From an uncultured Gammaproteobacteria bacterium (GTDB lineage Bacteria; Pseudomonadota; Gammaproteobacteria; CAWCPV01), in NCBI GenBank assembly GCA_963797555.1, contig CAWCPV010000004.1:608001-672000 (forward strand): 64,000 bases of DNA. Direction: 5' to 3'. Every line of letters begins with the position of its first letter. Positions within the stretch are counted from its first letter, which is position 1. The position numbers and the translations under genes were made by a program. Shown piece by piece: positions 2,356 to 52,004 of this stretch. The notes beneath the pieces were generated by a model. That model did not search any database and was not told the origin of the DNA. It saw nothing but the letters and a program-made list of their open reading frames with translations.

Positions 2356-3155
2356 GGCAAGCTGTCAGAGCGCCGGCCTGTCGTCGCGACCGTCTGTTCC
2401 GCCGATAGCGCTGGGAATGGTCATGGGCTCACGAGGTCTTGCAGCAACACATCATGGTTCGTCTCCTTCTCGTGCTCCCTCACCAGTCGGCTGAGCGTGG
2501 ACGAGTGCCGCCGAAGCGCTGTGCAATGGCCTTCATCGAGCGCCCCGGCTCATGAGAAGTTATCCAACTATTCCCGGGTAACCTGCGCACTGCCCACGAC
2601 TGCTGGCGAGGCGGGCGCGGCCCCGGGACAACCCGCCGTACCGGCGGGTAATTGTACTCCCTGAAATTCTGTCGCCGGTCAGCGACGAGACCCCGTCTCC
2701 GGTTCACTCGATAAGGCATTCGGGCAGTGCCCAGCGAGCTGCGGGCCAAACAGGGACCGCTGCTCGCAGCCCTTCGCACTTGGTGGCTGGTCGAGCGATG
2801 AGCGAAGAGCTTTCTTTGCCGACCGACAACACGGCGCCCTGCAAGCCGTGGTAACGGCGGTTTCGTGGGACACGGCCGCTGCGCTGCGCTGACCCTGGGG
2901 AGAATGCTGCGCCACGAGTTCGACCGGCCGAGATGACCTCTCCGGACGACGGCTCTCGATTGCTCCCGCCGACGCGTTCTCCGAGGTCGGCGTCCCTACG
3001 GGGGCGAGCGCCTGGAAGCCGCTCCTGCGTCACGTTCCCGGCACACCCTGCTGAGGCATGCTAATTGCGTACTGCTTGGCAACGATTGTCCGCTATCTGG
3101 TTACAGCCAGGTGGCCAACGGCTCGTGCGGAGGGGGCTCCCTCCGGGAGGACGTT

Positions 3156-3459
3156 ATGCGAGTCTCTGAGAGACACCGTGTGGCTTTAGCTTTCGTAACC
3201 GCCGTGCTGCTGGGCGGGCTAGTCGGCTGTGCCACTACCTCCACGACTTCGGTGAAGACAGAAACAGTTAGCGAGCCCGCGGCCGCTGCCCCCGGCGAGG
3301 ACGGCCCGGTCCGCCAAGGCGCCGGTCGGACCCCCGACGAGACCACCGTAACGACCACGACCCGAAAGGAAGGTCCGAATCGGGATCGTAGGCAGCGCCG
3401 TGAACCTGGGGGGCGCCGTCATCGCGTTCCCGTTCCGCGTCATCGGCGCAATCTTCTAG
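3156..3459 (+). pseudogene. Small lipoprotein with a frameshift near 3380
   Basis: GGAGG RBS; signal peptide with lipobox LVG-C; Thr-rich body; hydrophobic C-terminus GIVGSAVNLGGAVIAFPFRVIGAIF* continues in the +1 frame. Confidence 0.55.
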
Positions 3460-3611
3460 GGGTGTCGCGGCTGCGACGTCTCGCCTGGCCGCGTACCACC
3501 TGGGCACCCGAGTCGTCAGAGGGGGACGCAATCATTCGCCCACATGGCGGCCGGGCCGCCAGCGCCACGGGCTCCAAATACGCTGGGGCGTCATGGCTGG
3601 CAGCGTGTCGT

Positions 3612-5006
3612 TCATGCTGCTGTTCGGTCTTCGCTCCTGGGGGTCTGTTCCGACGGCAAATAGATCAACACGCTGAGCCCGCCGTCGGGCTCGTTCCTCG
3701 CCGACATCTCGCCGCCGTGCAGGCGCACCGCGCGCTCGGCGATCGCAAGCCCCAACCCGTATCCGCCAGTGGCGCGGTCGCGCGCGTCGCCGGCGCGCAC
3801 GAACGGCTCGAATAGTCGCGGCAGCATCTCTCCGGGAACACCGGGACCGTGGTCGCGCACCCGGATCACGAGCCGGCCCGACTGCGCGGGATCGGGTTCC
3901 ATGGATAATTCCACCGTACTGCCCTCGTCGGTGTAGCTCACGGCGTTGCGCAGCACGTTCTCCAGGGCGCTGTGCAGCAGCGGCGCATTGCCCGCTATTA
4001 CGGCACGCGCAGTCTTTTCGAAGCGCACTTCGCGGCTCCGGGCGTGCGCCTCGAAGGCGGCATCGGCGGCAACCGCTTCCAGCAGCTCGGCCATATCCAC
4101 AGGCTCCCGTAGGGGAGGTTCGGCACCGGATTCCAAGCGCGCGAGAGACAGCAGTTGACCGATCAGCTCGTTCAGCAGTTCGGTCTCGCGCTCCATCCGG
4201 TCCAGCTCCGGCTGGGCGTCCTTCCCGGCTCGTTGGCGCGCCAGCCCCAGGGCCACTTGCAGGCGCGCGAGCGGTGAGCGCAGCTCGTGCGAGACATCGC
4301 TGAGCAATCGTTTTTGTGAACCGATCACGGCGTTCAGGCGCTCTGCCATCCGGTCGAACGCCCGTCCCAGCTCGGCGAGCTCGTCACGGCGCCCGCCGAG
4401 GGAGGGTCCGACACGCTGACTCAGGTCGCCCGCGGCGTACCCTTCAGTTGCACGGTGCAGCCGCTGGATGGGCGCTGTCAGATAGCGCGCCAGCGCGAAG
4501 CACACCAGGCCGCTCACCAGCGCGGCCACCAGCAGAGGCACTGCCATCACCCACGGCCGGCGCAGCACGCGGGCCAGTGTCGCGCCTTGGAAGTCCGGGA
4601 CGAGCCGGTACTGGGTGCCGTCGGGCAAGCGGATTACGGGCCGCAACCGTGACGCGGAGCGGTCGTGCGGCGGAGGCGGCCGCTCGGCGCGTCGGGCCTG
4701 ACGCTCCAGGATCCACGTCGGTACTTCCCGGGCCAGTGTATCTTCGCCTTCTGGGTTGAGCACGAGGATCGGAACCGCTTCGCGGCGATCGACCCGGCGT
4801 GCCCAGGACCGCAGCCCCTTGATGCCGCCGCGGTCCGCTGCGGCTTGCGCCTCGGCAACGTGGCGCATCATGTACTGGTGGGGTGTGGTGGCTTCGCGCC
4901 GCTCGCGCATCCGCTCGAGGAATTGGGACGCGGTCAGCACGCTCGCCGCCGAAAACAGCACGAGGGCAACCCAGAACGAGAGAAAGAACTTCCAGAACAG
5001 TCGCAT
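3612..5006 (-). CDS. cpxA: CpxA-like sensor histidine kinase (2 TM, HAMP, HisKA, HATPase)
   Basis: DVSHELRSPLARL H-box, ENVLRNA N-box, DHGPG, GGYGLGLAI; downstream of cpxR and divergent from a Spy/CpxP gene. Confidence 0.85.
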   Translation of the reverse strand: MRLFWKFFLSFWVALVLFSAASVLTASQFLERMRERREATTPHQYMMRHVAEAQAAADRGGIKGLRSWARRVDRREAVPILVLNPEGEDTLAREVPTWILERQARRAERPPPPHDRSASRLRPVIRLPDGTQYRLVPDFQGATLARVLRRPWVMAVPLLVAALVSGLVCFALARYLTAPIQRLHRATEGYAAGDLSQRVGPSLGGRRDELAELGRAFDRMAERLNAVIGSQKRLLSDVSHELRSPLARLQVALGLARQRAGKDAQPELDRMERETELLNELIGQLLSLARLESGAEPPLREPVDMAELLEAVAADAAFEAHARSREVRFEKTARAVIAGNAPLLHSALENVLRNAVSYTDEGSTVELSMEPDPAQSGRLVIRVRDHGPGVPGEMLPRLFEPFVRAGDARDRATGGYGLGLAIAERAVRLHGGEMSARNEPDGGLSVLIYLPSEQTPRSEDRTAA

Positions 5007-6425: not shown

Positions 6426-6743
6426 GCGCCCGGTCCCGCCGTGGGGCTCACCGAGATTTGAGTCAAGCGACCGGGCTATGGCGTAGCATTCCCTAGCCCG
6501 CGATGGGGAGGGCGAGGTTTGGGCTGAACGCAAGAGCCTGCGGGGTGTGAACTGTCCCTCCACTCACAGACTCTGAAACGCTACCGCCTCGACCTCTCCC
6601 GCGTGGGAATAGGGCGGGGGTGGGGAGCGACGCGTTGACCGCCGTGCCCCAATCCCCGGCTTTCCCCTGTGAGCGAGCAGGGTGGGAATCGGTTGCCGGG
6701 CGTAGGAATTCCCTGGCGTGAAAGCTCTGACAAACGCTGCGTG

Positions 6744-7448
6744 CTACGGTCGTTTCCGTTGGACGACATCGTCCCGCAAGTAAACAGGCAATGCCTCCTC
6801 GGCGCTGACCGCCTTACCCCGGTGGAAGGCGTCGGCGGCCAGAGCGGCAATCGCGCTTGCCCGTGGATGGTAACCCGGCAGCCAGCGCTCCACGGCGGAG
6901 GAGACGCGGCTCAGCAGCACGGCGCCGTGGCGTTCCCACCCGCTTCCCGCTCCGACCCATCCGTCGTCGGGTGGCAGCGGGACCCGGTCTGGAGAACAGG
7001 CCAGCTCCGGTCCTGCCGGCTCAACCAGCCCGGACAGGACGCGCTGGTATGCGCACCAGTAAACCTCACCCATGCGGGCGTCGAGGGCGGCCAGGACTCG
7101 CCGTGCGGGGACCGCATGGGCCAGCGCGGCCAGAGACGAAATCGGCACGACCGGCCTATCGGTGCCCAAGGCGAGCCCTTGGACCACGCTGGCAGCGATC
7201 CGCACGCCGGTGAATGAACCGGGTCCACGGCCGAAGGCGAAGGCATCCAGTGTGCGGAGCGCGAGCCCGGCCTCACCTAGCAGCTCGTCGACCATGAGCA
7301 GGATGCGGTCGGCATGCTGCCGAGGCGCCAGAACAAACCGCTCGCGAACCTCGCCATCCAGGTAAAGAGCCACGGAGCAAGCGTCCGTGGCGGTGTCCAC
7401 CGCCAACAGCCGGATACCGCTGGGCCCCGGCGCGGCCATGGTGGTCAT
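6744..7448 (-). CDS. tsaB: tRNA t6A biosynthesis protein TsaB
   Basis: LAVDTATDACSVAL, GRGPGSFTGVRIA, LDARMGEVY, LPVYLRD; coupled to yoaA. Confidence 0.95.
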   Translation of the reverse strand: MTTMAAPGPSGIRLLAVDTATDACSVALYLDGEVRERFVLAPRQHADRILLMVDELLGEAGLALRTLDAFAFGRGPGSFTGVRIAASVVQGLALGTDRPVVPISSLAALAHAVPARRVLAALDARMGEVYWCAYQRVLSGLVEPAGPELACSPDRVPLPPDDGWVGAGSGWERHGAVLLSRVSSAVERWLPGYHPRASAIAALAADAFHRGKAVSAEEALPVYLRDDVVQRKRP

Positions 7449-32285: not shown

Positions 32286-32334
32286 AATATATCGAGTCCG
32301 ACCCCGAGAGCCGCATATCGTGTCTGACCCCATT
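32286..32334. repeat. Two orphan Y1-element terminal repeats
   Basis: ATCGAGTCCGACCCC (to 32305) and ATATCGTGTCTGACCCCATT (32315-32334) match the TIRs at 41053, 45520 and 46277-46303. Confidence 0.75.
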
Positions 32335-34264: not shown

Positions 34265-35834
34265 TCAAGCGGGCGCAGGAAGCGGCGGTGCCTCAAAGCC
34301 GCGGCGTCGGTGGGCGAGGACATCTCTGAGATAGCACAGCGGGGAGCTCAATCGCAGCCGAGAAGTCTCGATCACACTGGCGAGCAGCGCCAGCGCCCGG
34401 CTGCCTTGTTCGCTGCGGGTCCCCTGGCTGATGCGACGCAGAATCACCCAGTGACGCAGCGCCCGCTCCGCCACGTTGTTGGTCAGCGGCAGCTGAGGCT
34501 CATCCAACACCCGGAAGATCGCCCCCCAGTCGTTGAGCAGCTCCTTGCCCAGCGCCTGGGCCTTGTCATAAGGGCAGCAGCTCATGCGTTCACACAGGGC
34601 CGTGAGCTCGTTGAGTCTCGCCCGGGTGGGCTTGCCGCAGGGAGCCGCCCGGTCCCTCGCGGGCGTGATAGACGGCCTGCATCAGCGCATCGAGCAGGTC
34701 ATAGACCGCCTGGCCGTAGCCCTGGAGGGTGGGCGAGAGGCAATCCCTCAGGCCCCGGGCCTTGCGAATGAGATGCGCCCAGCAACGCAGGCGCTTGGCA
34801 TAGTCCCGATAGACCTGGTACCCATCGCTCATCAGATAGCCGCAGAAGAGATCCTCGATGAGGTTCTGAAACATCTCTTTGGCGCGAGAGCCGACCAAGA
34901 ACAGCGCCGTCGAGGCCGAGATGAACACCCATAACCACAAGGGCTCTCCCCATTGCTTGTGCGGTGTCTCATCGGCATGCATGAGGGCCGCTTCCAGCAA
35001 CTGGGTCACCAGCTCATCCTCGACCGGCTCGCAGGCACGGGCGGTCTCCATCACGCATTGGTGGAGGGTGCCGATGCCGAGCGCCAGCCCAAACACCTCG
35101 TGCAGGAACTCCCGGACCAGGCGGATGGACAGGCGCATCCGAAACCGCAGCCAGACGATGAAGGCGCACAATCCCGGCCCCACCAGGCGCCACTCGCCAA
35201 GCTCCACCCCTCGCCAGCATCCCAAGTGCTCGGGCGCGCGGTGCGGCGCCTGCCGGGTCTCATGACCACAGTCGCAACGGCTCTGGTAGTATACCTGCCG
35301 CGTGCAGGTCAGGCGCAGCCCCGGCGCCTGCTCATCGCCAAAGACCAAGTCCAGCCTATCAAAGGCGGTGTAGGGCTTCGCCTGCTCAGGATTGAGCGCC
35401 CCACCACACAGCGCACAACTTCCCGGCCGATGATGGTCCCAATCGGTGACTGTCAGCTTCTGGGCGCGCCCGAATCCCTGGGAGCCAGGCTGCCGGCCCG
35501 CTCGGCGCTGCGTCCCTGAGGTCTTGCCACTCGTGTCCTTTGCGCCCTTCTGGCCGCCAGCCCCGGGGAGGCCATCCTCCTCAGAACGGCTCTTGGCCTC
35601 CTCGTCCTCAGGACCGGCGTCGGCCTCTTCGTCCTCCCGCGCACGCAGCCAGGGGTCTTGACTGCTCGGCGGACGAGAGCTATTGGAGGGACTCTGATTG
35701 AGCCGCTCCCACGCTTCCTTGAGATCCTGCAGCAGGCGGATGCTCAGCGCTGCCAGCGCATCGGGATCCTTCTGCCTCAGCTCCAGAATGCGCTCCTCGC
35801 TGAGCTGACGAAGGTCGTGCTCCTTGAGCACCAT
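34265..35834 (-). pseudogene. IS66 transposase, frameshift near 34600
   Basis: NSSRPPSSQD, HADETP, MSDGYQVY, RLRCWAHLIRK, TNNVAERALR, GTRSEQG. Confidence 0.88.
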
Positions 35835-36175
35835 GATTGTGTGTGACAGTGAGGTCGAGGAACATCCTGCCAAGGGCACCCAACTGTCTCACGCTGGAAC
35901 CGTTTTGTCCAGCCCTCCGGGTCAAAATATTCCAGGGGGGTGAACGGTTACTATCAGAGTGGTTAAAAGAATCTACAAAAATAGATTTAAGCGCGGACAT
36001 TGGCTCGCTTCTTGGCATACCTGGAGTAGTTAGAGTTTCTGGTGTGGCAACGGTAAGAAATACGCTGCAAGTTTCATACTCGTTGCCTGTTGGTCATGAG
36101 TTTGCGTCGCATGTCCAGAATGAAAAGTATTTCAAACATATCTGGGCAACTAAATACTAGCTTGGAAACGCGCTA

Positions 36176-38105
36176 ATCGGGTAGCCGGGGGTGTTTAACC
36201 CCCAGCCCCCACACCACCACGGCATGCGGGTCCGCACCGGGCGGTTCACAAAAGCGGAGCACCCGACGACATCAAGCATAGCCATGGGCACGGAGCCACA
36301 AAGCGCGTACCGATATCAAGCCCTGGCGTTCCAGCCAGTCGTTGGTCATCCCGGTCTGTGTGGCCAGCGTCTTCGACAGGTGCCAGTAGCTTTGGGAGCT
36401 GAGCGCCGTCAGAATCGCATGGCGTTTACCGGTACCCAGGGCCAGGAGATTTCGGACCTTGGTGCGCACCCGACGCCACTGTTTCCAGTAGCACATGCGG
36501 ATGCGCCGCCGCAGCCATGGGTCAATCTCTGGGATGGGACGGTAGTAGTCCGAGATACCGAAGTAGTTCATCCAGCCCCTGACGTAGCGGGTGAGCCGGT
36601 CGAGGCGGTAGTCCATCGAGACTCCCCAGGAGCGCCCGGTCAGTTTCCGGACACGGTGCCTGAAGTCCTCGAAGGCTTGGTCGGACCAGCGCAGCTTGCT
36701 TCCACGGAACGTGAATCCCAGGAATTCCACCGCGTCGGTCTTGACCACCCGGCTCTTGGACTCGTTGACCACCAGCTTGAGGCGGGTGGTCAAGAACCGC
36801 GTGATGCTGGCCTTGACGCGTTCACCGGCGCGCTCGCTTCTGACCAAGATAAGCAGGTCATCGGCGTATCGCGCGAAGCGGTGTCCGCGCCTCTCCAGCT
36901 CCTTGTCGAGGTCGTCCAACAGGATGTTGGCCAGCAACGGCGAGAGCGGCCCGCCCTGAGGCGTGCCGAGTTCCGTTGCCTGGATGCACTCCCCGACCAG
37001 TACGCCCGAGCGCAGGTAGCGGCCTATCAGGGCGAGGAGGCAGGTGTCCTTAACCTTCCTCGCCACCCGGGCCATCAGGACATCGTGGTTCACTTGGTCG
37101 AAGAATTTCTCCAGGTCAAGGTCCACGGCGAACCGATAGCCCTCGCCGATATACCGCTGCACCTGGCGCAATGCTCCATGGGCGCAACGTCCCGGTCGGA
37201 AGCCGAAGCTCGACGCCGAGAAGTCCGGGTCGAACAGCGGCGTGAGGACTTGCCCGATAGCCTGCTGGATCACCCGGTCGAGCACCGTCGGGATACCCAG
37301 CAGCCGTTCGCCCCCATTCGGCTTCGGGATACTCACGCGTCTCACCGGCTGGGGTTGATAGGTGCCATCGAGCAGGGCTTGGCGGATAGCGGACCAGTGC
37401 AGCCGTGCAAACGCCGGGAAGCCCTCAAGGCGCATCCCGTCAACGCCGGGCGCCCCCTGGTTGGCCTTCACCCGCTTCCATGCGCGCTTGAGGTTTGCGC
37501 GGTCCACCACCCGCACCATGAGGTCGTCGTGCAAGGCTGGCTGCGCAAGCACACGCCGGTCAACAACTCCCCCGGACGGGTTCAACATCGAGACCGAGTG
37601 ACTCACGGCTCCTCCTTGTACTCTCGTGTTCGGCCCTTCACCGGAAGTCCCTCCTGGACGCCTCGGCTACTACGGCCTCTGCTGACTTCTGCCCGGTCAC
37701 GCCGCGCGTTGCCGCGGGGCGCGCTGCCGAAGGCGGGCGGTAGGGTCCGGTGGTCGCCCCAGGGCTTTCGCCCTGGACCTCAGTCCGGCTCCCATAGCCC
37801 GATCCGGCCGCAGGCCGGACAGACCTCCCCGAATAAGGACATGGACTATCGGTGCACAACCGCCGCATTTACCCTATCTCCTGTACCCGGTGGGCTTCGT
37901 CATCTTGTGCTGACTCGCCCGGAGACTAAGCCTTCTACGCGGTTTCTGTTCGTCGGCTCGCACCTTTGCGCTCGGGCTTCCTTCAGACCGCCCCTCGCGG
38001 GACCGCCCTTGCCGTCGGCTAGTAGTTGTATCTGTCCCGAGGGACATACCAGGTACTCCTACAGGGGACTCTCACCCCATCAGTCCATGCCCATGCCGGG
38101 CGTAC
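36176..38105 (-). mobile_element. Group IIC-attC intron (1930 nt)
   Basis: 5' end GTACGCCCGGCATGGGC after exon TTGT; domain V/VI then CCCGAT 3' end; inserted in the attC bottom strand at TTGT|TAG. Confidence 0.92.
36272..37606 (-). CDS. Group II intron reverse transcriptase/maturase (class C, no endonuclease domain)
   Basis: [54 protein letters not shown]. Confidence 0.95.
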
Positions 38106-38198
38106 ACAATGCGTTGCAGGTAACGTCTGTCCCGCTACGCGTGCCAGACGCACCTGAATACAACCGTTATGTTTTAAAAGGAAGATGAGGACTAGTTG

Positions 38199-39002
38199 AT
38201 GGCTGTGCAAAAAGCATTTCACGAAGGATTTGCACGCTTCTTTGAAGCGCCTTCTCGAGAAGCACTACGTGATCTTTTAAAACACAGTGTGGGCGAAACA
38301 GATCACATTGATTTTAAGGCAGAATTACCGGAAAAGGCTAAGTTAGCAAAGCATTTTCTAGCATTTGCCAATAGTGGAGGCGGAGCCCTTATTGTTGGCG
38401 TTACAGATGGTGAGTTGATGGAGCCAGTTGGTATTTCACAACTTACAGACAAGGCTGATATCCAAAAAATGGTATCGCCATACTTACCGGACTCTCTTCA
38501 ATATGAGGTTTTCGATTTTTCTTTCACTGAATCGGAATACCCAACTATCAAGGGAAAAACATTTCAGGCCATTCTTATTGAATCAAATGACAAAGACCTG
38601 CCGTACGTTTGCAAGCGAAACGGTGATTCGATACGAGAAAATGTTCTTTATGTAAGAAAAGGCACAAATTCAACAGAAGCAAACCATGATGATTTTCAAA
38701 AAGTTATAAATAAGCGCCTAGATACAGGATATTCTTCAACAAGAACACTTAGCCTAGAAGAGCATCTTGAACAGTTAAAATTATTGTATAAAGAAATACC
38801 CAGAACTATAAAGATACCAAAAGAAGGCGCATTCGATCAGCTACATGCGTTCGCGCGCATCGCAGGCGACATGCAGAATTTATTCGGAAAGCTTTACGAA
38901 ACTAAGCCAAATCCTGAATTCCCATCTGAAGACTATGATACGTTTGTACTTAGGCTGATTGATATGAAGAAGGCTCGTATCAAGCAGGAAATTGAGGTAT
39001 GA
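38199..39002 (+). CDS. Cassette 2: Schlafen/AlbA_2 domain protein
   Basis: ETDHIDFK, AFANSGGGALIVGVTD, YVRKG; AT-rich; flanked by attC sites. Confidence 0.85.
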   Translation: MAVQKAFHEGFARFFEAPSREALRDLLKHSVGETDHIDFKAELPEKAKLAKHFLAFANSGGGALIVGVTDGELMEPVGISQLTDKADIQKMVSPYLPDSLQYEVFDFSFTESEYPTIKGKTFQAILIESNDKDLPYVCKRNGDSIRENVLYVRKGTNSTEANHDDFQKVINKRLDTGYSSTRTLSLEEHLEQLKLLYKEIPRTIKIPKEGAFDQLHAFARIAGDMQNLFGKLYETKPNPEFPSEDYDTFVLRLIDMKKARIKQEIEV

Positions 39003-39003
39003 A

Positions 39004-39084
39004 ACATAACAAGGCCGTAAACTCGGACGCATTTTTTGTTTGCTGCGCTCACTACAAATGCGCCGGTTACGGCTGGCGTTGGGC
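39004..39084 (+). other. attC site 2
   Basis: R'' ACATAAC (complement of the preceding GTTATGT), imperfect palindrome, R' GTTGGGC. Confidence 0.9.
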
Positions 39085-39175
39085 GGCCGCTGGCACCGCC
39101 TCGCTTGATCGACCGCTGGTTGGGGACGACCCTACCCCTCGCCGCTCTGCAAGGAGAAACGGAAGGAGACCTCAC

Positions 39176-40030
39176 ATGAGAGCCAAGCTACAGCCACAAA
39201 TCGCCGTCTTCGCCAGGAACCACCTTCCCTATCTCGATTACGCCACTTCCGTTGCGAGCGATGATTCGGAACGGAAGGTCACATTTCGCAGTCGCAAGGC
39301 GTGGAGCGGCGCGAAACGGGCGCTTGAAGCCCTCGGGCGCCTCCCGGTGTTCTTTGCGGTCGTCGGTCAAGCCGACGTTCGCTATAAGGCGACTCTCCAA
39401 GAGATCCAGCTCAACCCTCGCACTGACGATGTCGATACGCAGCGACTACTGAGACTTGTTCCACCACAAACTGAAGGCGAGGGTCTCTGGGACGAGGCCG
39501 TTCACACACTCTACGTGGTCTCAGGCTGCTATCGTATCGACCAGCCACGGCCACTCTCAAGCCTAAATCTGGCCGACGACGGTTCACCCCTGTCTGAGAA
39601 CTTCAAATACTCATACGCCCTCGTGCGTGACGAAGCCATCGACATTCGGGACAGGCCAGCGCCCGACACGGCGCCACCTCCCGCACGGGTGGACGCTACC
39701 ATATCGCGGATCATTCGGGATACGGCTCTCGTCTGTAGGCTAAAGGCCTTCTACAATGATACGTGCCAATTGTGCGGCACACGGCTCACCCTTCGCAATG
39801 GCCGGGGCTATTCAGAGGGGCATCACCTGCGCCCCCTCGGCGCGCCACACGACGGACCGGACGTAGCCGACAACATTGTCATCGTCTGCCCGAACTGCCA
39901 TGCCCTTCTGGATCGCTGCTCCCTAACACTCGAGACCATTCCGAAATGCCATCCCGACCACCCGATCAGCCAGCTCTACATCAGCTACCACAACGCCCTG
40001 CCGGAACCGGGAGCGCAAGCGATCCGCTGA
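39176..40030 (+). CDS. Cassette 3: HNH endonuclease with an uncharacterised N-terminal domain
   Basis: CQLCG..SEGHHLRPL..GPDVADNIVIVCPNCHALLD; AAGGAG RBS. Confidence 0.88.
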   Translation: MRAKLQPQIAVFARNHLPYLDYATSVASDDSERKVTFRSRKAWSGAKRALEALGRLPVFFAVVGQADVRYKATLQEIQLNPRTDDVDTQRLLRLVPPQTEGEGLWDEAVHTLYVVSGCYRIDQPRPLSSLNLADDGSPLSENFKYSYALVRDEAIDIRDRPAPDTAPPPARVDATISRIIRDTALVCRLKAFYNDTCQLCGTRLTLRNGRGYSEGHHLRPLGAPHDGPDVADNIVIVCPNCHALLDRCSLTLETIPKCHPDHPISQLYISYHNALPEPGAQAIR

Positions 40031-40041
40031 AGCAAAGGGCC

Positions 40042-40099
40042 GCCCAACAACCGCTTGCACCGGACTCGCTTCGCTCGCCGGTGAAGCGAGGCGTTCGGC
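40042..40099 (+). other. attC site 3
   Basis: GCCCAAC-AACCGCTTGCACCGG...CCGGTGAAGCGAGGC-GTTCGGC. Confidence 0.92.
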
Positions 40100-40128
40100 G
40101 TCACATGCAACGATGAGGTTCGCTCCGA

Positions 40129-41016
40129 ATGTCCGTTAAGAATCGCATCCTCCAAGAACAGCGGGATTGGGCTACCGCGTTGGATCTGGAAGTCGATTCC
40201 AGAGGCTACCTCAGTAGCTATCAACTCAATCTCTTTCGGCCGCTGAATCAGAAATCGCTGGAGGCCTTTAACCGTGGTAGTGGTTCGGAGTTGAAGGACA
40301 CGCCGAGGAAACCGGCCAAGATGCGGGCGCTTCATTCATCTTCGGCATTGGCCGTGAACGTCTTTGATACATGGATGGATAGAAACGCCTCGCCGCTGCT
40401 GTCTGTCCTGAACTTGGAGCCGGGGGAAGTGGATGTTCATTTCGAAGAGCAATATCCCACCGGGCTTCCTGGCAATCCACCAAACCTCGATGTCGTGCTG
40501 AGGAGGTCCGGCGGTCACGTCATCGCCATAGAAAGCAAGTTTACAGAGTGGCTAACGCCGAAAGCCAAAAAGGCGCCCCCGCTCAAGGACAAATACTTTC
40601 CGAAAGGTGCCGGTGTCTGGGAGCAAGTCGGCCTTCCCAGGAAACAGCAATTTGCGGCGGCGCTCCACGCTGGAGAGGTCGTCTTCCGTCATCTGGATGC
40701 ACCGCAGCTCATTAAGCATAGTCTCGGCCTAGCCACACACTTGGGCCGCGACTTCTCGCTTCTGTATGTGTTCTATGATGCCGATGGTGTCGAAGGGGAA
40801 GTGCATCGGTCTGAGATCTCTATATTCGCAGCTCAGGTCGGTTCCGAGTTCGGATTTCAAGCCATTTCCTACCAGCAGGTGTTCCCCGAATTGGCGGCGC
40901 GACATGACGCACCCGAGGAATATCTCAGCTATCTGAAGGCGAGGTATTTCTCAGGAGACGCCGAACAACGCGTTGCAGGTGACGTTTGGCCCACTGCGCG
41001 CGCCAGCCGCGCCTGA
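40129..41016 (+). CDS. Cassette 4: PD-(D/E)xK putative restriction endonuclease (PGN_0703-like)
   Basis: HSSSALAVNVF, HFEEQYP, PPNLDVV..AIESKFTE, DAPQLIKH; stop codon lies inside attC4. Confidence 0.75.
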   Translation: MSVKNRILQEQRDWATALDLEVDSRGYLSSYQLNLFRPLNQKSLEAFNRGSGSELKDTPRKPAKMRALHSSSALAVNVFDTWMDRNASPLLSVLNLEPGEVDVHFEEQYPTGLPGNPPNLDVVLRRSGGHVIAIESKFTEWLTPKAKKAPPLKDKYFPKGAGVWEQVGLPRKQQFAAALHAGEVVFRHLDAPQLIKHSLGLATHLGRDFSLLYVFYDADGVEGEVHRSEISIFAAQVGSEFGFQAISYQQVFPELAARHDAPEEYLSYLKARYFSGDAEQRVAGDVWPTARASRA

Positions 41017-41031: not shown

Positions 41032-41052
41032 GTCTTAGTGTTAGAGAAGCGC

Positions 41053-41370
41053 AATGGGGTCAGACATGATAATCTGTGCTATGCTTCGTGCAGTCACTTC
41101 ACGACCTGAACCGCCATGGCCCGCCTTCCCCGCTACGTCATCCCTGGGCAGCCGCAGCATATCATCCAGCGCGGCAACAACCGCCAGGTGATCTTTGCCG
41201 CGGATGCGGACTATCAGTTTTTTCGCGATGCCCTGGTGGAAGCGGCAAGTGAGCATGGTCTGTCGATCCACGCGTATGTCTGGATGACCAACCACATCCA
41301 TCTTCGGGCCACACCTGAAGGCGACCACAGCATCAGCAAAGTGCTCCAGTCAGTGGGTCGGCGTTATGTG
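41053..41370 (+). mobile_element. Y1/RAYT-like element type A, 3'-truncated (gene from 41116)
   Basis: Left TIR AATGGGGTCAGAC; MARLPR..HIIQRGNNRQ..MTNHIH; close paralogue of 45581-46288. Confidence 0.88.
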
Positions 41371-41396
41371 GGAATGTGGAATGGGGTGTGGAATGG

Positions 41397-41950
41397 GTAG
41401 AGTAGAGGGCAGGTGTCCGAGACCGTAGGCTGGGCCTATCTGTTTCCGCCCCTTTCGTCTGGCGGTGCCTCAAGAGCCCATCCGTAGCCGCAGTAGCCAG
41501 CCCCCTCTCATCAAACCGTGCATACGGTTTTCCCGTACACGTTCCGATGCTCTTCACGCCAGGGCATGCGCCGTGCGCCAGGGTGCCGTCGTCGCCAGCT
41601 TGAAGAGTCCATAACGGGCAGGTGCTCTCCGGACGGGAAAGCGCCGGTACGCCTGCGCCCGGCTGAGGAGCTTGTGGCGCCGACGCAGATGAGTACGTAC
41701 CCGCTCTTCCACGTGCAGCTTCACCTTGGACAGTGCCTGAGTGCAGTTGCGGTGGTGAAAGTAGTGGCTCCAGCCCCGCAGGCTCCGGTTCAGCTCCCCG
41801 ATGATCTGGGGCATCGGCACCGGGGTCCGCCGTCGAGGAGTCAACTGCTTGGCACGGTCTTTGATGCGCTGCACCGAGCGCTTCGACGGTTCCACATGCG
41901 GGTAGCGTTTGCCGCTGTGGCGACTGCGCCGCAGGCGGAAGCTGAAGCCG
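41397..41950 (-). mobile_element. Group II intron 3' fragment (second family; maturase C-terminus plus DV/DVI)
   Basis: ELNRSLRGWSHYF; domain V GTGTACGGGAAAACCGTATGCACGGTTT; ends CTCTAC before 3' exon CCATT. Confidence 0.85.
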
Positions 41951-41956
41951 CCAGCC

Positions 41957-42783
41957 AAAGGGGCCAGGGTCGCATTATTTTGCTATGATAAGTCCAATGC
42001 CCCGCCGCCCCCGCATCCATCTTGATCGCGTACCGCTGCACATCGTGCAACGCGGGCACAACCGCCAACCGTGCTTCTTTGGCGAAGAAGATTATCAGGC
42101 ATACCTCCACTGGTTGGGCGAAGCGTTGAAGAAAGAGCAATGCGCGCTTCACGCCTACGCGTTGATGACCAACCACGTCCACCTGCTTCTGACGCCGGAA
42201 CATGCCCAAGCGGTTCCCCGGCTAATCATTGCCTTGGGGCGGCGCTACGTGCAGTATATCAACACCACCTACCGCCGGACCGGCACCTTGTGGGATAGCC
42301 TGGGATAGCCGTTACAAATCCTCGCTGATCCAAGCCGAAACCTACTTGCTTGCCTGCCAGCGATACATCGAGCTCAACCCCGTACGGGCGGCCATGGTGG
42401 ATGATCCTGCGCATTACCGCTGGACGAGCTACCGTCACAACGCCCTGGGGCAGGTCAACCCTTGCCTTACCCCCCATCCTCTGTATCTGTCGCTGGGCAG
42501 GGATGCGAAGGAAAGGCAAGCTGCCTACCGGAGCCTGTTCCGGGCGCAACTGGACCAAGAAGCGGTCAACGACCTACGGCTGGCGCTCAATCAGAATCAG
42601 CCTTTGGGCAATGCACGGTTTTATGCCAACATTGAGGCAGCGACCGGCCAACGGCGGGAGCCGAAGCCGCGAGGCAGGCCGTGTGCCCGGCGAGACGACT
42701 CCGTCGCGGCATGACCCAGGTCAGGGAGAACTGGCGGTATGAATGCAGTTTATGCAGCAGAAATATGCGAGCCTGGCCCCTTT
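41957..42783 (+). mobile_element. Y1/RAYT-like element type B copy 1 (827 bp; gene from 41997, frameshifted)
   Basis: TIRs AAAGGGGCCAGGGTCGCAT / ATGCGAGCCTGGCCCCTTT; HIVQRGHNR, MTNHVHLL, YIELNPVRA; 10-bp duplication at 42291-42310. Confidence 0.9.
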
Positions 42784-42807
42784 AATCGCTTTAATCGCGG
42801 TCAGAAC

Positions 42808-43281
42808 ATGGCGCACGAGACAAACGATCCTTTCGGCGTCCGCTCTGCCTTCGCGCAGATTCAGAGACGAACGCATTCAGGGCTTGCAATTGCAGTCGCA
42901 GCAATCTTGGATAGTCAGCTCGAACTGTGCCTGAAGCAGGCCATGCTCCCGATGCCGAAGAAGCTATACGCCCAACTCTTCGACCCAATGCGCGCCTTGG
43001 GTAGCTTCGCTAGCAAGATCACAATGGCATACGCCCTGGGCATCGTCACTAGAGACATCTACAACCGCTTAGAGAACGTCCGAAAGATCCGCAATGCTTT
43101 TGCTCACTCGACCGTCGTTCTGAACTTTGAGAGTGCTCCAGTGGCGCCTCTGCTGGATCGACTGAAGAAGTCCATGGAACTGAAGACCAACTCACCGCAG
43201 GGACAATTTCTCGAGTGTGTAAAGCCCATTGACGAGGCGCTCAACGCCTACTTGAAATCGAAGGGCGCGCAGGCGTTGTAA
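42808..43281 (+). CDS. Cassette-like gene: MltR/HEPN-like protein
   Basis: LGSFASKITMAYALG, VRKIRNAFAHS (RxxxxH). Confidence 0.7.
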   Translation: MAHETNDPFGVRSAFAQIQRRTHSGLAIAVAAILDSQLELCLKQAMLPMPKKLYAQLFDPMRALGSFASKITMAYALGIVTRDIYNRLENVRKIRNAFAHSTVVLNFESAPVAPLLDRLKKSMELKTNSPQGQFLECVKPIDEALNAYLKSKGAQAL

Positions 43282-43297
43282 CCGGAGCTTCCGTGAG

Positions 43298-43353
43298 ACC
43301 TAACCAATAAGGATTGAGGCGACCCGAGGGGTCGTTTCAATCCAGTGTTCAAG
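43298..43353 (+). other. Degenerate attC-like site 5
   Basis: ACCTAAC, stem GGATTGAGGCGACC/GGTCGTTTCAATCC, then GTTCAAG; spacing atypical. Confidence 0.5.
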
Positions 43354-43418
43354 AAGCCCAGTGGTGGGCGTGGCTCTTTAACAGCAAGGGGATTGCTTCA
43401 GCGGCGTGTGTGAGGGCT

Positions 43419-44245
43419 AAAGGGGCCAGGGTCGCATTATTTTGCTATGATAAGTCCAATGCCCCGCCGCCCCCGCATCCATCTTGATCGCGTACCGCTG
43501 CACATCGTGCAACGCGGGCACAACCGCCAACCGTGCTTCTTTGGCGAAGAAGATTATCAGGCATACCTCCACTGGTTGGGCGAAGCGTTGAAGAAAGAGC
43601 AATGCGCGCTTCACGCCTACGCGTTGATGACCAACCACGTCCACCTGCTTCTGACGCCGGAACATGCCCAAGCGGTTCCCCGGCTAATCATTGCCTTGGG
43701 GCGGCGCTACGTGCAGTATATCAACACCACCTACCGCCGGACCGGCACCTTGTGGGATAGCCTGGGATAGCCGTTACAAATCCTCGCTGATCCAAGCCGA
43801 AACCTACTTGCTTGCCTGCCAGCGATACATCGAGCTCAACCCCGTACGGGCGGCCATGGTGGATGATCCTGCGCATTACCGCTGGACGAGCTACCGTCAC
43901 AACGCCCTGGGGCAGGTCAACCCTTGCCTTACCCCCCATCCTCTGTATCTGTCGCTGGGCAGGGATGCGAAGGAAAGGCAAGCTGCCTACCGGAGCCTGT
44001 TCCGGGCGCAACTGGACCAAGAAGCGGTCAACGACCTACGGCTGGCGCTCAATCAGAATCAGCCTTTGGGCAATGCACGGTTTTATGCCAACATTGAGGC
44101 AGCGACCGGCCAACGGCGGGAGCCGAAGCCGCGAGGCAGGCCACGTGCCAGGCGAGACGACTCCGCCGCGCATGACCCAGGTCAGGGAGAGCTGGCGGTA
44201 TGAATCCAGCTTTATGCAGCAGAAATATGCGAGCCTGGCCCCTTT
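43419..44245 (+). mobile_element. Y1/RAYT-like element type B copy 2 (827 bp; gene 43459-44203, frameshifted)
   Basis: Same TIRs and the same TGGGATAGCC duplication (43753-43772) as copy 1. Confidence 0.9.
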
Positions 44246-44276
44246 AATCGCTGTTCACATCACCTTGGAGATCGTC

Positions 44277-44654
44277 ATGAAATATCTGCTTGTTCTCGCA
44301 ACTCTTGTGGCAAGCGGTACGGCATCAGCTGCGAGGCTGCCGTGCTCAATCCACGCCAAGACGGGCGCTTCCGCAGCCACGCTCCAGAGCCTTAGCAAAA
44401 TATCGATCGAACAAGCACGGGCAACTGCTCTCTCCGCCGTCGGTGCACAATCGACGGCGGTGGCCGAGGGGGAGCTTGAAGCCGAGCACGGTTGTCTTGT
44501 CTACTCGTTCGACATCCGTCTCTCTCCTCAGGCTACTGGGGTAGAGGAGGTCATGGTCGATGCTGGTAACGGCAAGGTGTTGTCGCATAAGCATGAAACA
44601 CCGCAGCAAGAAGCCACTGAGAAAGCTAAGGATGCAGCTGCTAGTCACAAGTAG
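44277..44654 (+). CDS. Cassette-like gene: exported PepSY domain protein
   Basis: Signal peptide; KISIEQARATAL, ELEAEHGCLVYSFDI, EVMVDAGNGKVL. Confidence 0.85.
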   Translation: MKYLLVLATLVASGTASAARLPCSIHAKTGASAATLQSLSKISIEQARATALSAVGAQSTAVAEGELEAEHGCLVYSFDIRLSPQATGVEEVMVDAGNGKVLSHKHETPQQEATEKAKDAAASHK

Positions 44655-44682
44655 TCACTGCAATTAGGTAAGCGACGTTGCC

Positions 44683-44730
44683 GCCCAACCCTGCGCTCCA
44701 GCCGACGGGCACGCCTTCGGCGTGGGCGCG
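44683..44730 (+). other. Left half of attC site 6
   Basis: GCCCAAC-CCTGCGCTCCAGCCGAC plus hairpin CACGCCTTCGGCGTG; cut at CAATGG. Confidence 0.7.
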
Positions 44731-44736
44731 CAATGG

Positions 44737-45501
44737 GTAGAGTAGAGGGCAGGTGTCCCGAGACCGTAGGCTGGGCCTATCTGTTGCCGCCCCTTTCGTC
44801 TGGCGGTGCCTCAATAGCCCAACCATAGCCGCAGGAGCCAGCCCCCCTCATCAAACCGTGCATACGGTTTTCCCGTACACGGCTTTCCGATGCTCTTCAC
44901 GCCAGGGCATGCGCCGTGCGCCAGGGTGCCGTTGTCGGCAGCTTGAAGAGTCCATAACGTCCGTAGAGCACCTGCCCGGGAAAGCGCCGATACGCCTGCA
45001 CCCGGCTGATCAGCTTGTGGCGCCGACGCAGATGAGTATGCACCCGCTCTTCCACGTGCAGCTTCACCTTGGACAGTGCCTGAGTGCAGTTGCGGTGGTG
45101 AAAGTAGTGGCTCTAGCCCCGCAGGCTCCGGTTCAGCTCCCCGATGATCTGGGGCATCGGCACCGGGGTCCGCCGTCGATGAGTCAACTGCTTGGCACGG
45201 TCTTTGATGCGCTGCACCGAGCGCTTCGACGGCTCGACATGCGGGTAGCGTTTGCCACTGTGGCGACTGCGCCGCAGGCGGAAGCTGGAGCCGAGAAAGT
45301 CGAATGACTGTTCTCGGGCATCGACCACCCGCGTCTTGGCCTCGTTGAGGCTGAGACCCAGCCGCTCCAATATGCTGCGCAGCACCCGCATCGGTGGCTC
45401 CACCCCCCGTGCACACATGATGACCAGATCATCGGCATAACGCACGAGTCGGGCTCCATAGGCGCCCGCCAGGTCATGGCGCTCCCATATCCGATCCAGC
45501 G
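44737..45501 (-). mobile_element. Group II intron 3' fragment (same family as 41397-41950)
   Basis: LDRIWERH..VRYADDLVI..FDFLG..; premature TAG at 45113-45115; DV/DVI; 3' exon CCATT. Confidence 0.88.
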
Positions 45502-45519
45502 CGTCCGCAATACGTCCGC

Positions 45520-46303
45520 AATAGGGTCAGACACGATATTGTGCTATCCTTCGTGCAGTCACTGCACGACCTGAACCGCCATGGCCCGCCTTCCCCGCTA
45601 TGTCATCCCCGGGCAGCCGCAGCATATCATCCAGCGCGGCAACAACCGCCAAGTGATCTTTGCCGCCGATGCGGACTATCAGTTTTTTCGCGATGCCCTG
45701 GTGGAAGCGGCAAGCAAGCACGGTCTGGCGATCCACGCGTATGTCTGGATGACCAACCATATCCATCTGCTGGCCACACCGGAAGGCGACCACAGCATCA
45801 GCAAAGTGCTCCAGTCCGTGGGTCGGCGTTATGTGCAGTACTTCAATTTCACATACCGGCGCAGCGGCACCCTGTGGGAAGGCCGCTACCGGGCGACGGT
45901 AGTCGATAGCGAGCGGTATCTGCTGACGCTGATGCGCTACATCGAGCTGAACCCCGTGCGGGCGGCGCTGGTGGGGCACCCCAGGGATTATCCCTGGTCC
46001 AGTTACCGGTGCAATGCGCTCGGTGAGTCGGGATCGAACGCAGACTGGCTGAGGCCGCATCAGGAATATCTGCGCTTGGGCCGCACTGCGGCGGAACGGC
46101 AAGGTGCCTACCGGCAATTGTTCCGGGCGGCTGTCTCCGGCAACGACCTGAGGGAAATCCGGGAGTGCACGCACAAGGGCTGGGCGCTCGGTGGCGACCG
46201 GTTCAGGGACCAGGTCGAGGCGCTGGCGCAGCGGCGTGCAGCGTCCAAGGGTGTGGGCAGGCCGAGAAAGGATGATAATCGTGTCTGACCCGTGTCTGAC
46301 CCC
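45520..46303 (+). mobile_element. Y1/RAYT-like element type A, complete
   Basis: TIRs GGGTCAGACACGAT / ATCGTGTCTGACCC; short tandem duplications at both ends. Confidence 0.88.
45581..46288 (+). CDS. HUH Y1 tyrosine transposase (RAYT/TnpA-REP-like), intact
   Basis: HIIQRGNNR, MTNHIHLL (HUH), GTLWEGRY, RYIELNPVRA (catalytic Tyr), YPWSSY; stop lies inside the right TIR. Confidence 0.92.
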   Translation: MARLPRYVIPGQPQHIIQRGNNRQVIFAADADYQFFRDALVEAASKHGLAIHAYVWMTNHIHLLATPEGDHSISKVLQSVGRRYVQYFNFTYRRSGTLWEGRYRATVVDSERYLLTLMRYIELNPVRAALVGHPRDYPWSSYRCNALGESGSNADWLRPHQEYLRLGRTAAERQGAYRQLFRAAVSGNDLREIRECTHKGWALGGDRFRDQVEALAQRRAASKGVGRPRKDDNRV

Positions 46304-51261: not shown

Positions 51262-51295
51262 ACGAAGAACCCCGCTGCGTGGCGGGGTTCTTCGT
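51262..51295 (-). terminator. Intrinsic terminator after the cold-shock gene
   Basis: ACGAAGAACCCCGC / GCGGGGTTCTTCGT perfect stem. Confidence 0.75.
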
Positions 51296-51316
51296 GGCCG
51301 AGCGAGTCGCTTGCCT

Positions 51317-51520
51317 CTACGCCGGGACGACGTTGGTGGCAGCCGGACCCTTCGGGGTCGTCTCGGTATCGAACCTCACCTTCTGACCTTCGGCCAACGA
51401 CTTGAAGCCGCTGCCTGCGATGGCGGAGTGATGCACGAACACATCCTTGCCGCCGTCGTCCGGGGTGATGAAGCCGAATCCCTTACTGTCGTTGAACCAC
51501 TTGACCGTTCCTGTACTCAT
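51317..51520 (-). CDS. Cold-shock protein (CspA family)
   Basis: [24 protein letters not shown]; ~130-nt leader after TATAGT at 51655-51660. Confidence 0.97.
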
Positions 51521-52004
51521 CGGAAGAACCTCTGCAATATTAGTGAAGTAGAGGCTCGTGAAGGCAGTTTCTTGGCACAGAGGCTGCGGGAGTGACCACT
51601 GTTGAACAGGAGGGACTTCCGAGACGGTATCAGGACAAGGAACTGCACGGACGGCACTATACCCCGAGTCCTTTGAGAAAGCTAGTCTCTTCCCTAGCCC
51701 CGAACGGGACTTGTCCGGAAGGGCCTACCCGACCGCGAGATCCCAAAGCAACCGTGGCTATCGGGCCGCGCAGCAGATTCATCCTCGAGCGTTCAGACGC
51801 AGAGCCCGAACAGACGGGGTAAAGCAGTGGCCGCGGATGGTCGGTTAGTTGCCGTGTACGTCCACATCCCCGGGCTTCCGGCGCCGTTGACGGACGTGTA
51901 CGGGGAGCCCTGCTCACAGATGCGACCCCACCCCGGCGCTCGCAGGGAGTCTGACGCCGACGAGCTACGGCGCTTCGCGGTCAGGGGCGAGGCAGCCAAG
52001 GACG

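Follow-up and report, generated by a model that had tools for sequence, protein, structure and literature searches.

We analyzed a 64,000-nucleotide window of genomic DNA from an uncultured gammaproteobacterium (G000:C4:608001-672000, numbered from its first letter), in which two fragments of a group II intron lie among elements that encode Y1 transposases. Sequence comparisons make it likely that these fragments are the decayed remains of an endonuclease-less intron that homed into the terminal repeat of Y1 elements resembling the REP-associated tyrosine transposase (RAYT) family, and into solo copies of that repeat which resemble repetitive extragenic palindromic (REP) sequences. The target is best described as the repeat of RAYT-family Y1 elements in its terminal or REP-like form, and these elements need not be autonomous. 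The features concerned are listed here, with a slash marking an intron-exon junction or the boundary between the outer pentamer and the core of a repeat (RT, reverse transcriptase; ORF, open reading frame; D1 to D6, intron domains 1 to 6):

32316-32334, plus strand: unoccupied solo target ATATCGTGTCTGACC/CCATT, a repeat match without intron
41053-41369, plus strand: truncated type-A Y1 element, with left end AATGG/GGTCAGACATG..., a subterminal hairpin and a Y1 gene cut short after 84 codons (41116-41369)
41370-41396, no strand assigned: stutter GGAATG TGGAATGG GGTGTGGAATGG; its last five bases, AATGG (41392-41396), form the outer left-end pentamer, and their minus-strand reading, CCATT..., is the 3' exon of intron copy 1
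41397-41950, minus strand: intron copy 1, 5'-truncated, with a frameshifted RT (X domain and C-terminus) followed by D5 and a long, branched D6 whose last bases are CTCTAC
41957-42783, plus strand: type-B Y1 element 1, with ends AAAGGGGCCAGG ... CCTGGCCCCTTT and a Y1 gene broken by a 10-bp tandem duplication, abutting the truncated side of copy 1
43420-44245, plus strand: type-B Y1 element 2, 98.9% identical to element 1
44655-44736, no strand assigned: stretch resembling a cassette end or attC (GCCCAAC ... CACGCCTTCGGCGTG hairpin), with GCGCAATGG as its last bases; a putative attC
44737-45502, minus strand: intron copy 2, 5'-truncated, with an RT that has one in-frame TAG and runs from just before YADD through the X domain, followed by D5 and a long D6
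45503-45523, no strand assigned: junction stutter GTCCGCAATAC GTCCGCAATA, two units between copy 2 and a type-A left end
45524-46303, plus strand: full type-A Y1 element, with left end (AATA)GGGTCAGACACGATAT, hairpin TCGTGCAGTCACTGCACGA, a 235-aa Y1 gene (45581-46288) and right end TCGTGTCTGACCC GTGTCTGACCCC

On the plus strand, the copy 1 junction reads ...gtgtggAATGG/gtagagtagaggg (41392-41396/41397) and the copy 2 junction ...gggcgcgcAATGG/gtagagtagaggg (44732-44736/44737). Both introns therefore terminate ...CTCTAC/CCATT on the minus strand, and this shared 3' junction, first remarked upon in an earlier sequence-only reading of the window, is exact to the base. The Rfam model for D5-D6, RF00029, ends precisely at each junction, scoring 46.1 bits at 44737-44887 (gathering score 40) and 25.5 bits, under the gathering score, at 41397-41545. 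The 3' end of the intron is fixed by an alignment of 16 members whose consensus fold, with compensatory changes in 14 of 38 pairs, forms the basal stem of D6 and leaves an unpaired (bulged) A seven bases from ...CTCTAC. The two copies are 93.7% identical over 559 bases by BLAST, and their flanks differ straight after CCATT. At copy 2, the AATGG of 44732-44736 is an outer left-end remnant that reads as the 3' exon CCATTGCGCGCC on the minus strand; it closes the GCGCAATGG of 44728-44736, which is repeated at 41049-41057 and there runs on into GGTCAGACATG to make an intact type-A left end. On the 5' side, homology ends at 41950 in copy 1, followed by the filler CCAGCC and the type-B left end AAAGGGGCCAGG from 41957, and at 45502 in copy 2, followed by GTCCGCAATAC GTCCGCAATA and the type-A left end GGGTCAGACACG from 45524. 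Both window introns are dead fragments, and nothing in the window is active.

CCATT belongs to the repeat, since an alignment of type-A ends (12 left and 6 right) shows terminal inverted repeats, left AATGGGGTCAGACACG... and right ...CGTGTCTGACCCCATT. It forms the outer five bases of GTCTGACC/CCATT in the 15-base repeat found at both ends of type-A elements. The 13-mer GTCTGACCCCATT occurs exactly 24 times in the 5.35-Mb genome, where 0.16 occurrences are expected, and the 12-mer GTGTCTGACCCC has 49 genome matches at up to one mismatch, many of them solo, that is, without a Y1 gene. The window itself contains five repeat matches at up to two mismatches against 1.15 expected, a number attained in none of 100 shuffles. 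Type A thus has a REP/RAYT-type layout, a gene between inverted short repeats that also occur as many solo copies. Its 235-aa protein matches PF01797 (Y1_Tnp) with 50 bits and scores 21.6 bits against the IS200 equivalog NF033573, below the cut-off of 55, so it does not match the IS200 TnpA family. The truncated type-A element is 94% identical to the full element at 45517-45835, and its ORF departs after ...GRRYV. For type B, the 107-aa N-terminal ORF matches PF01797 with 42.5 bits (scanned on the twin at 43447-43770, whose listed translation is identical). Both type-B genes carry the same frame-shifting 10-bp tandem duplication (TGGGATAGCC twice; 42296-42315 and 43758-43777) and the elements are 98.9% identical, indicating that an already broken element was copied.

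Elsewhere in the source genome, the intron is represented by two more copies with a 3' end, which brings the BLAST count of such copies to four, all on contig C4, and by two D1 fragments:

C4:558915-559734: intron copy 3, internally deleted, with 3' exon CCATTGACCCCTTTGCC and 5' exon ...GAGGCGCGG/
C4:688775-688862: intron copy 4, 88 bases kept, with 3' exon CCGTGACGCAGACCCC
C6:89286-89553 and C5:191721-192108: D1 fragments, 5' part only, both carrying ...GCCGACCnnnnGGTCAGnnGGGGAAGGC

The copies differ among themselves by 5-7%, and three of the four 3' junctions read CCATT. In both D1 fragments, exon-binding site 1 (EBS1) is GGUCAG, the exact complement of the CUGACC in ...GTGTCTGACC/CCATT. An empty-site paralogue could be identified for copy 3: its 3' exon CCATTGACCCCTTTGCCTTGCCT matches 22 of the 23 bases that follow atatcgtgtctgacc/ at C3:781846, where the unoccupied repeat reads ...GTGTCTGACC/CCATTGACCCC..., and the intron therefore stands exactly at the meeting point of GACC and CCATT. 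These data bear on the simplest alternative, namely that the shared CCATT is a coincidence, or a segmental duplication of the intron 3' end with a few flanking bases, and implies no target preference. Copies 1 and 2 do share five bases only, and all copies lie on contig C4. Yet the copies have diverged by 5-7% with flanks that part directly past CCATT, CCATT lies within a 13-mer found 24 times, the copy 3 flank follows an intron-free repeat for 23 bases, and the EBS1 of the genome's own fragments and the relatives described below independently indicate the same site. The empty-site paralogue and the EBS1 match largely refute this explanation, to which we give hardly any credence.

All four copies and both D1 fragments are truncated, internally deleted or frameshifted, so the intron lineage appears extinct in the source genome, whose assembly is 84.6% complete and comprises 20 contigs. 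A search of its 60 nearest relative genomes, all of the same class only, yielded two weak partial matches in one genome (G031) and a 65-base match in another (G039), on which no conclusion is based, but not a single full-length copy. The first 72 bases of the C6 piece share a distinctive CCGTCTG variant with copy 3. At C6:89286-89624, the D1 fragment (intron positions 76-338) is joined head-to-head to the intron's own first 72 bases in inverted orientation, a local inversion in a dead copy.

The intron 5' end and D1-D4, missing from the truncated window copies, are preserved in the genome's own fragments and in relatives, where the 5' end reads GUAUGCCG; D1-D3 of the family span about 490 nucleotides. 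The RT fragment of copy 2 matches the maturase domain GIIM (46 bits), TIGR04416 (109.9 bits over model positions 196-353) and RVT_1 (26.4 bits); the last score lies under its cut-off of 29.6 because the fragment is truncated. The closest full-length relatives, L075 and L076 (77% and 76% RT identity), come from metagenome contigs, and the full 445-aa RT ORF of L075 matches solved group II RTs at 2e-60, the nearest in a PDB comparison being the IIC enzymes 7uim (2e-60) and 6ar1 (3e-55). No HNH endonuclease was found in the C-terminal fragment in the window, whose Pfam matches are RT and maturase only; the 445-aa ORF of L075, judged by length, stops a few tens of residues past the maturase domain. 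RF02005 is matched at 60-76 bits in 8 of 14 relatives' loci scanned. By contrast, the other intron of the window, which resides in an attC-like hairpin, matches RF02001, and its RT (36272-37606) is 38% identical to that of the relative. The proposal of a second group II intron family thus holds, and for the same two reasons the intron is, by sequence comparison, not a member of the IIC-attC group. Analogy with fragments described in Halorhodospira halochloris suggests that it may belong to class E (PMC7923331). In D6 of the intron clade (window 44737-44860; alignment columns 55-172), there is a conserved branched insertion of about 100 nucleotides with a GAAA-type hairpin, CCGCCAGACGAAAGGGGCGG, which is 80-89% identical across distant hosts.

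Relatives with intact D1 allowed the pairing between EBS1 and the 5' exon to be compared across hosts. We read EBS1 in the loop GCCGACC-N4-[6 nt]-N2-3-GGGAAGGC and compared it with the final six 5'-exon bases, the intron-binding site 1 (IBS1). The 67 junctions, of which 36 are distinct, had 5.25 of six positions paired, compared with 3.71 +/- 0.18 after shuffling, and none of 2000 shuffles attained the observed value; this count retains 3 of the 36 junction pairs that come from distant RTs, where the 5'-end pattern probably misfired. With one representative per EBS1 type (n=15), the mean was 4.8 and again 0 of 2000 shuffles attained it. In a blind scan of all D1 column windows against exon offsets 1-15, the EBS1 site gave the top six signals. 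L075 and L076 have the EBS1 GGTCAG and a 5' exon ending ...GAGACCTGACC/ (...CCTGACC/). The 3' exon of L076 is CCATTGCGCGCGTTG, compared with CCATTGCGCGCC in copy 2, and CCATTGCGCGCG from this exon also occurs in the copy 2 flank. Among 79 distinct 3' exons of relatives, 76 begin with C, 51 with CC and only two with CCATT; past the first bases they vary with the host repeat (CCGGAATT, CCTTAATT, CCTAC, CCTTT and others). The CCATT of three of four copies in the source genome is thus a local target and not a requirement of the intron.

Filled and empty sites could be paired beside Y1 genes in several relatives. L088 contains, at 4098-4127 (contig coordinates), an exact second copy of the final 30 bases of the 5' exon; it is followed by CCTTTATT, while the 3' exon of the intron is CCTTTTTAAGG. 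This empty unit lies five bases outside the approximately 32-base terminal repeat of a Y1 element (gene 3071-4054) whose left repeat starts near 3055, and it carries a variant of the core of that terminal repeat. In L022, a RAYT (NF047646, 194.6 bits) stands between inverted GTAGG-hairpin REPs of classical form (GTAGG + GTGCGTCATACGCAC); the intron follows ...GGTGCGTATGACGCAC/, and an empty tandem copy at the same locus reads ...ACGCAC/CCTACGG. All 19 junctions examined in the metagenome-assembled genome (MAG) that contains L022, G061 of the Desulfobulbaceae, follow a GTAGG hairpin, in both orientations. In L030, the filled site GGGGTCAGGT/.../CTTTCG, at which the intron splits GGGGTCAGGT/CTT, can be set against the unfilled CCGGGGTCAGGT/CTTCAA found at the left end of a Y1 gene close by. 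Finally, a Y1 left end at L165, in the genome of relative L001, reads GGAAACGG/GGTCAGGTCTTGCATTGCC; taken in reverse complement, it is the consensus 5' exon of the relatives, (T)GCAAGACCTGACC/CC. Together with the EBS1 of the source genome, the copy 3 empty site, the covariation and the relatives' exons, the pairs from L088, L022 and L030 support the earlier proposal that the intron homes into the repeat between GG/GG, with evidence that is indirect but convergent. As an observation apart, the 328-aa Y1 protein of L088 (3071-4054, minus strand) combines a RAYT-like domain at its N-terminus (68 bits) with a C-terminal part matching the end of DnaA that binds DNA (TIGR00362, E = 8e-15).

Several results weigh against homing into this repeat. 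The window copies lack D1, so that their own EBS1 is unreadable, and GTCTGACC is absent as a 5' exon from all copies in the source genome: the only clean 5' junction, on C6, reads TTCTCTCTGGCC/ (...CTCTGGCC/), pairs with EBS1 only by way of a G-U and is not a repeat, and the 5' side of copy 3, ...GAGGCGCGG/, is unrelated to the repeat. Copy 4 departs from the common 3' junction with CCGTG. The upstream part of the repeat is TCGTGT here and CAAGAC in relatives with the same EBS1. No covariation between EBS2 and IBS2 emerged from the D1/exon scan across relatives, the best other signal differing by at most 0.47 of 5 pairs. The EBS2 complementarity predicted by the sequence-only reading went undetected, and neither of the two 5' junctions visible in the source genome is GTCTGACC. 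The best NCBIfam model for the type-A protein, NF047646 (REP-associated tyrosine transposase), scores 77.8 bits against a cut-off of 80, and the type-A end, AATGG + GGTCAGACACGATA, has no clear palindrome, REP hairpin or GTAG motif. No Y1 gene lies upstream of full-length relatives at any of 21 loci (93 ORFs scanned). The target motif was found at only one of 16 Y1 loci in four relatives' genomes (L165), plus a motif hit in L168 (at 489), and at none of four Y1 loci of G061, though L022 of the same genome has one.

The missing upstream Y1 genes imply that most targets are solo REP-like units rather than ends of autonomous elements, and the relatives' targets are short units behind ordinary genes (DAHP synthase, response regulator, hicAB). 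A phmmer search of the ORFs of relatives' loci with the type-A and type-B proteins found Y1 genes only in L030, L034, L088 and L127, with weak matches in L017 and L022. By eye, we saw no hairpin directly upstream of GTCTGACC in the source genome that is comparable to the Desulfobulbaceae REP hairpin.

The cassette setting of the window offers another explanation, in which the intron, as IIC-attC introns do, aims at integron attC sites or other hairpins, and the Y1 ends simply have the same cassette boundaries. Copy 2 stands at a cassette end with a hairpin, an IIC-attC-like intron occupies the same array, the Desulfobulbaceae relatives directly follow a hairpin, and attC-like structures have been proposed upstream of 5'-truncated class E fragments in a cluster of attC sites lacking integron integrases (CALIN) (PMC7923331). 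The intron also resembles IIC and IIC-attC introns in having no endonuclease domain, a short EBS1 contact, an unseen EBS2 and multi-copy structured DNA motifs as targets. IIC introns, however, recognize a hairpin in their 5' exon, and the attC-like stretch at copy 2 belongs to the side of the 3' exon; and while IIC introns insert a few bases past the hairpin, IBS1 here consists of six bases of the repeat itself or of the 3' arm of the hairpin. Moreover, copy 1 is embedded in a Y1 gene, copy 3 precedes an ordinary gene, the relatives' targets lie behind unrelated genes with full-length copies in repeat units far from any attC, and EBS1 is complementary to the repeat core and to no attC consensus. 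We thus think it improbable that attC sites are the target. The sequence-only reading had placed an attC site at the base of a nested chain of attC, Y1 end, intron and Y1 element, and that layer is at most plausible.

The nesting also invites the reverse reading, in which Y1 elements insert beside or into introns and their adjacency reflects the target choice of the transposase. That each window intron is bordered on its 5' side by a Y1 left end, as had been noticed earlier, is borne out as an observation (type B at copy 1, type A at copy 2); the same nesting occurs in L034 and L127, and type-A left ends are always preceded by ...AAT. At the 3' junctions, though, the intron replaces the inner repeat (AATGG/intron, not AATGG/GGTCAGAC), which a Y1 insertion cannot yield. 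The truncation points vary, at intron positions of about 1230 and 1440 here and at others in L034, L127 and L026, and EBS1 complementarity is a property of the intron. There is accordingly little chance that transposase choice accounts for the adjacency. At L026, L028 and L036 (2001-4761), three copies, more than 99.7% identical, of a unit longer than 2.7 kb contain the intron truncated at the same RT position, and the sequence upstream of this truncation ends ...GTTTGCCACTTTGT.

If the intron homes into the repeat as we propose, its ribonucleoprotein would reverse-splice into the outward-reading strand of the element between GACC and CCATT, at the site ...TATCGTGTCTGACC/CCATT. It would act on transiently single-stranded DNA, as judged from RmInt1-type introns (PMC8914252, PMC1802570), recognizing about six bases through EBS1 plus the C at +1, and cDNA synthesis would be primed by the nascent strand at the replication fork, as in other endonuclease-less introns. 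Since the repeat is inverted at the two element ends and scattered as solo copies, it would supply many neutral, horizontally travelling targets on both strands. The intron would always be oriented outward from the element: at the right end, as in L022, it could share a transcript with the Y1 gene, and at the left end it would be antisense to that gene.

The 5' truncations may be explained either by Y1 elements that inserted into the intron later or, in the case of copy 2, by incomplete retrohoming into the same element. In the latter case, copy 2 could be the product of an incomplete cDNA in the left end of the adjoining type-A element (45524-46303), its outer end rebuilt later by stutter, rather than an intron cut by another Y1 element. 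The order of flank, AATGG, intron 3' part, left end and Y1 gene, with intron and Y1 gene divergent, is as predicted from such an event and recurs in L034, and 5' truncation is common in bacterial group II introns (PMC7923331). Against it, the inner junction has a nearly complete left end (AATA/GGGTCAGAC) and two stutter units, as at de novo insertions, and the element abutting copy 1 is type B, without GTCTGACC. We hold incomplete retrohoming to be the less probable origin of copy 2, albeit one to be taken seriously.

The DNA just outside Y1 left ends is stuttered, with the flank and outer pentamer tandemly repeated (X-AATGG-X-AATGG/GGTCAGAC) and sometimes partial cores in between. Such sites are present in the window (41370-41396 and 45503-45523), elsewhere in its genome (C7:43560-43625, C7:296470-296520 and C3:414620-414690) and in metagenome contigs (L028 from 4762; L030 at 4927-4990 and 6700-6745; L127 at 400-470). 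The stutter is found with and without introns, also before intron-free type-A left ends and in unrelated metagenome contigs, and resembles a trace left behind by Y1 transposition or repair.

A broader and more tentative idea, which we consider possible but doubtful, is that the whole endonuclease-less clade is specialized on REP/RAYT repeats, with EBS1 retuned to each host variant, insertion splitting the repeat, and a reciprocal arms race with Y1 elements. By MAG label, the clade's hosts include Gammaproteobacteria, Thermodesulfobacteriota/Desulfobulbaceae, Zetaproteobacteria, Gemmatimonadota and others, and the host repeat variants matched by EBS1 include CTGACC, GTGTCC, CTGTCC, ACGCAC and TCAGGT. 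In such a race, insertion where the outer motif (GTAGG, AATGG or AAAGG) meets the core would disable that end for the Y1 transposase, and Y1 ends would in turn insert into and truncate introns.

Bacterial group II introns hide in other mobile DNA, and their known specialized targets comprise terminators, attC sites and, in a few DDE insertion sequences (ISs), internal sites; ISRm2011-2 is a DDE-type IS. RmInt1 of Sinorhizobium meliloti, whose intron-encoded protein has no endonuclease domain, has its natural homing site in ISRm2011-2 (PMC1802570), spreads via single-stranded DNA at replication forks, and leaves host copies that fragment and go extinct (PMC1802570, PMC8914252, PMC4496777). The present intron resembles RmInt1 as an endonuclease-less intron that apparently homes into another mobile element and whose copies are fragmented and extinct in the host. 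Unlike RmInt1, which targets a site within an IS, it would use the 15-base Y1/RAYT-like terminal repeat and its solo copies, at the junction of outer pentamer and core, and its EBS2 was undetected. In the H. halochloris CALIN, H.ha.F1 and H.ha.F2 are 5'-truncated class E (IIB) fragments beside an IS200/605 element (Sonbol & Siam 2021, PMC7923331); the window fragments are likewise 3' fragments of an endonuclease-less intron (partial intron-encoded protein, D5 and D6) in a cassette array with an adjoining Y1-family IS. The sections of that report available to us ascribe targeting to attC-like hairpins and remark on the clustering of elements that depend on single-stranded DNA, and draw no homing link to IS ends (PMC7923331). 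REP sequences are landing sites for other mobile elements, including ISPpu9/10, ISPsy8, ISPa11 and IS1397 (Tobes & Pareja 2006, PMC1525189); in contrast to these DNA transposons, the intron would find its site by RNA-guided base-pairing, as shown by covariation. For a Pseudomonas putida group II intron, two of nine copies lie in REPs, an association that is weak and left unanalyzed in the parts of that source drawn on here (PMC1525189).

We found no literature report of group II introns targeting Y1- or REP-type repeats, subscription journals being outside the coverage of the search. The homing of an endonuclease-less intron into another mobile element is already known; new would be a Y1 terminal or REP-like repeat as the landing site, which is well supported comparatively. 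If true, such Y1/RAYT-like terminal or REP-type repeats would form a new and very abundant class of landing sites for group II introns, account for bursts such as the at least 19 copies in one Desulfobulbaceae MAG, and offer a reading of 5'-truncated intron fragments next to IS200/605-family genes in cassette arrays. The association joins two elements, each of which needs the single-stranded DNA of replication forks, and provides a natural series of EBS1/target pairs suited to a retrohoming assay.

Around these features, the window contains the other intron (approximately 36190-38110, minus strand), which is full-length with an intact 444-aa RT (36272-37606) and matches RF02001 with 134.7 bits and RF01998 with 64.2 bits; it lies in its attC-like hairpin in the orientation opposite to that of the cassette ORFs, which makes it IIC-attC-like. 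No integrase family was matched among the large ORFs scanned at 29.5-35.9 kb, in a scan that included no search aimed at an integron integrase, and an IS66-family DDE transposase domain is encoded at 34590-35879 (minus strand). Cassette-like ORFs with defence-type domains extend from 38196 to 41016, comprising SLFN/AlbA_2 (38196-39002), an HNH endonuclease (38999-40030) and REase-ARP (40129-41016), and a PepSY-domain ORF is found at 44277-44654. Further downstream, a cspA thermoregulator RNA (RF01766, 91.6 bits) lies at 51262-51686 on the minus strand.

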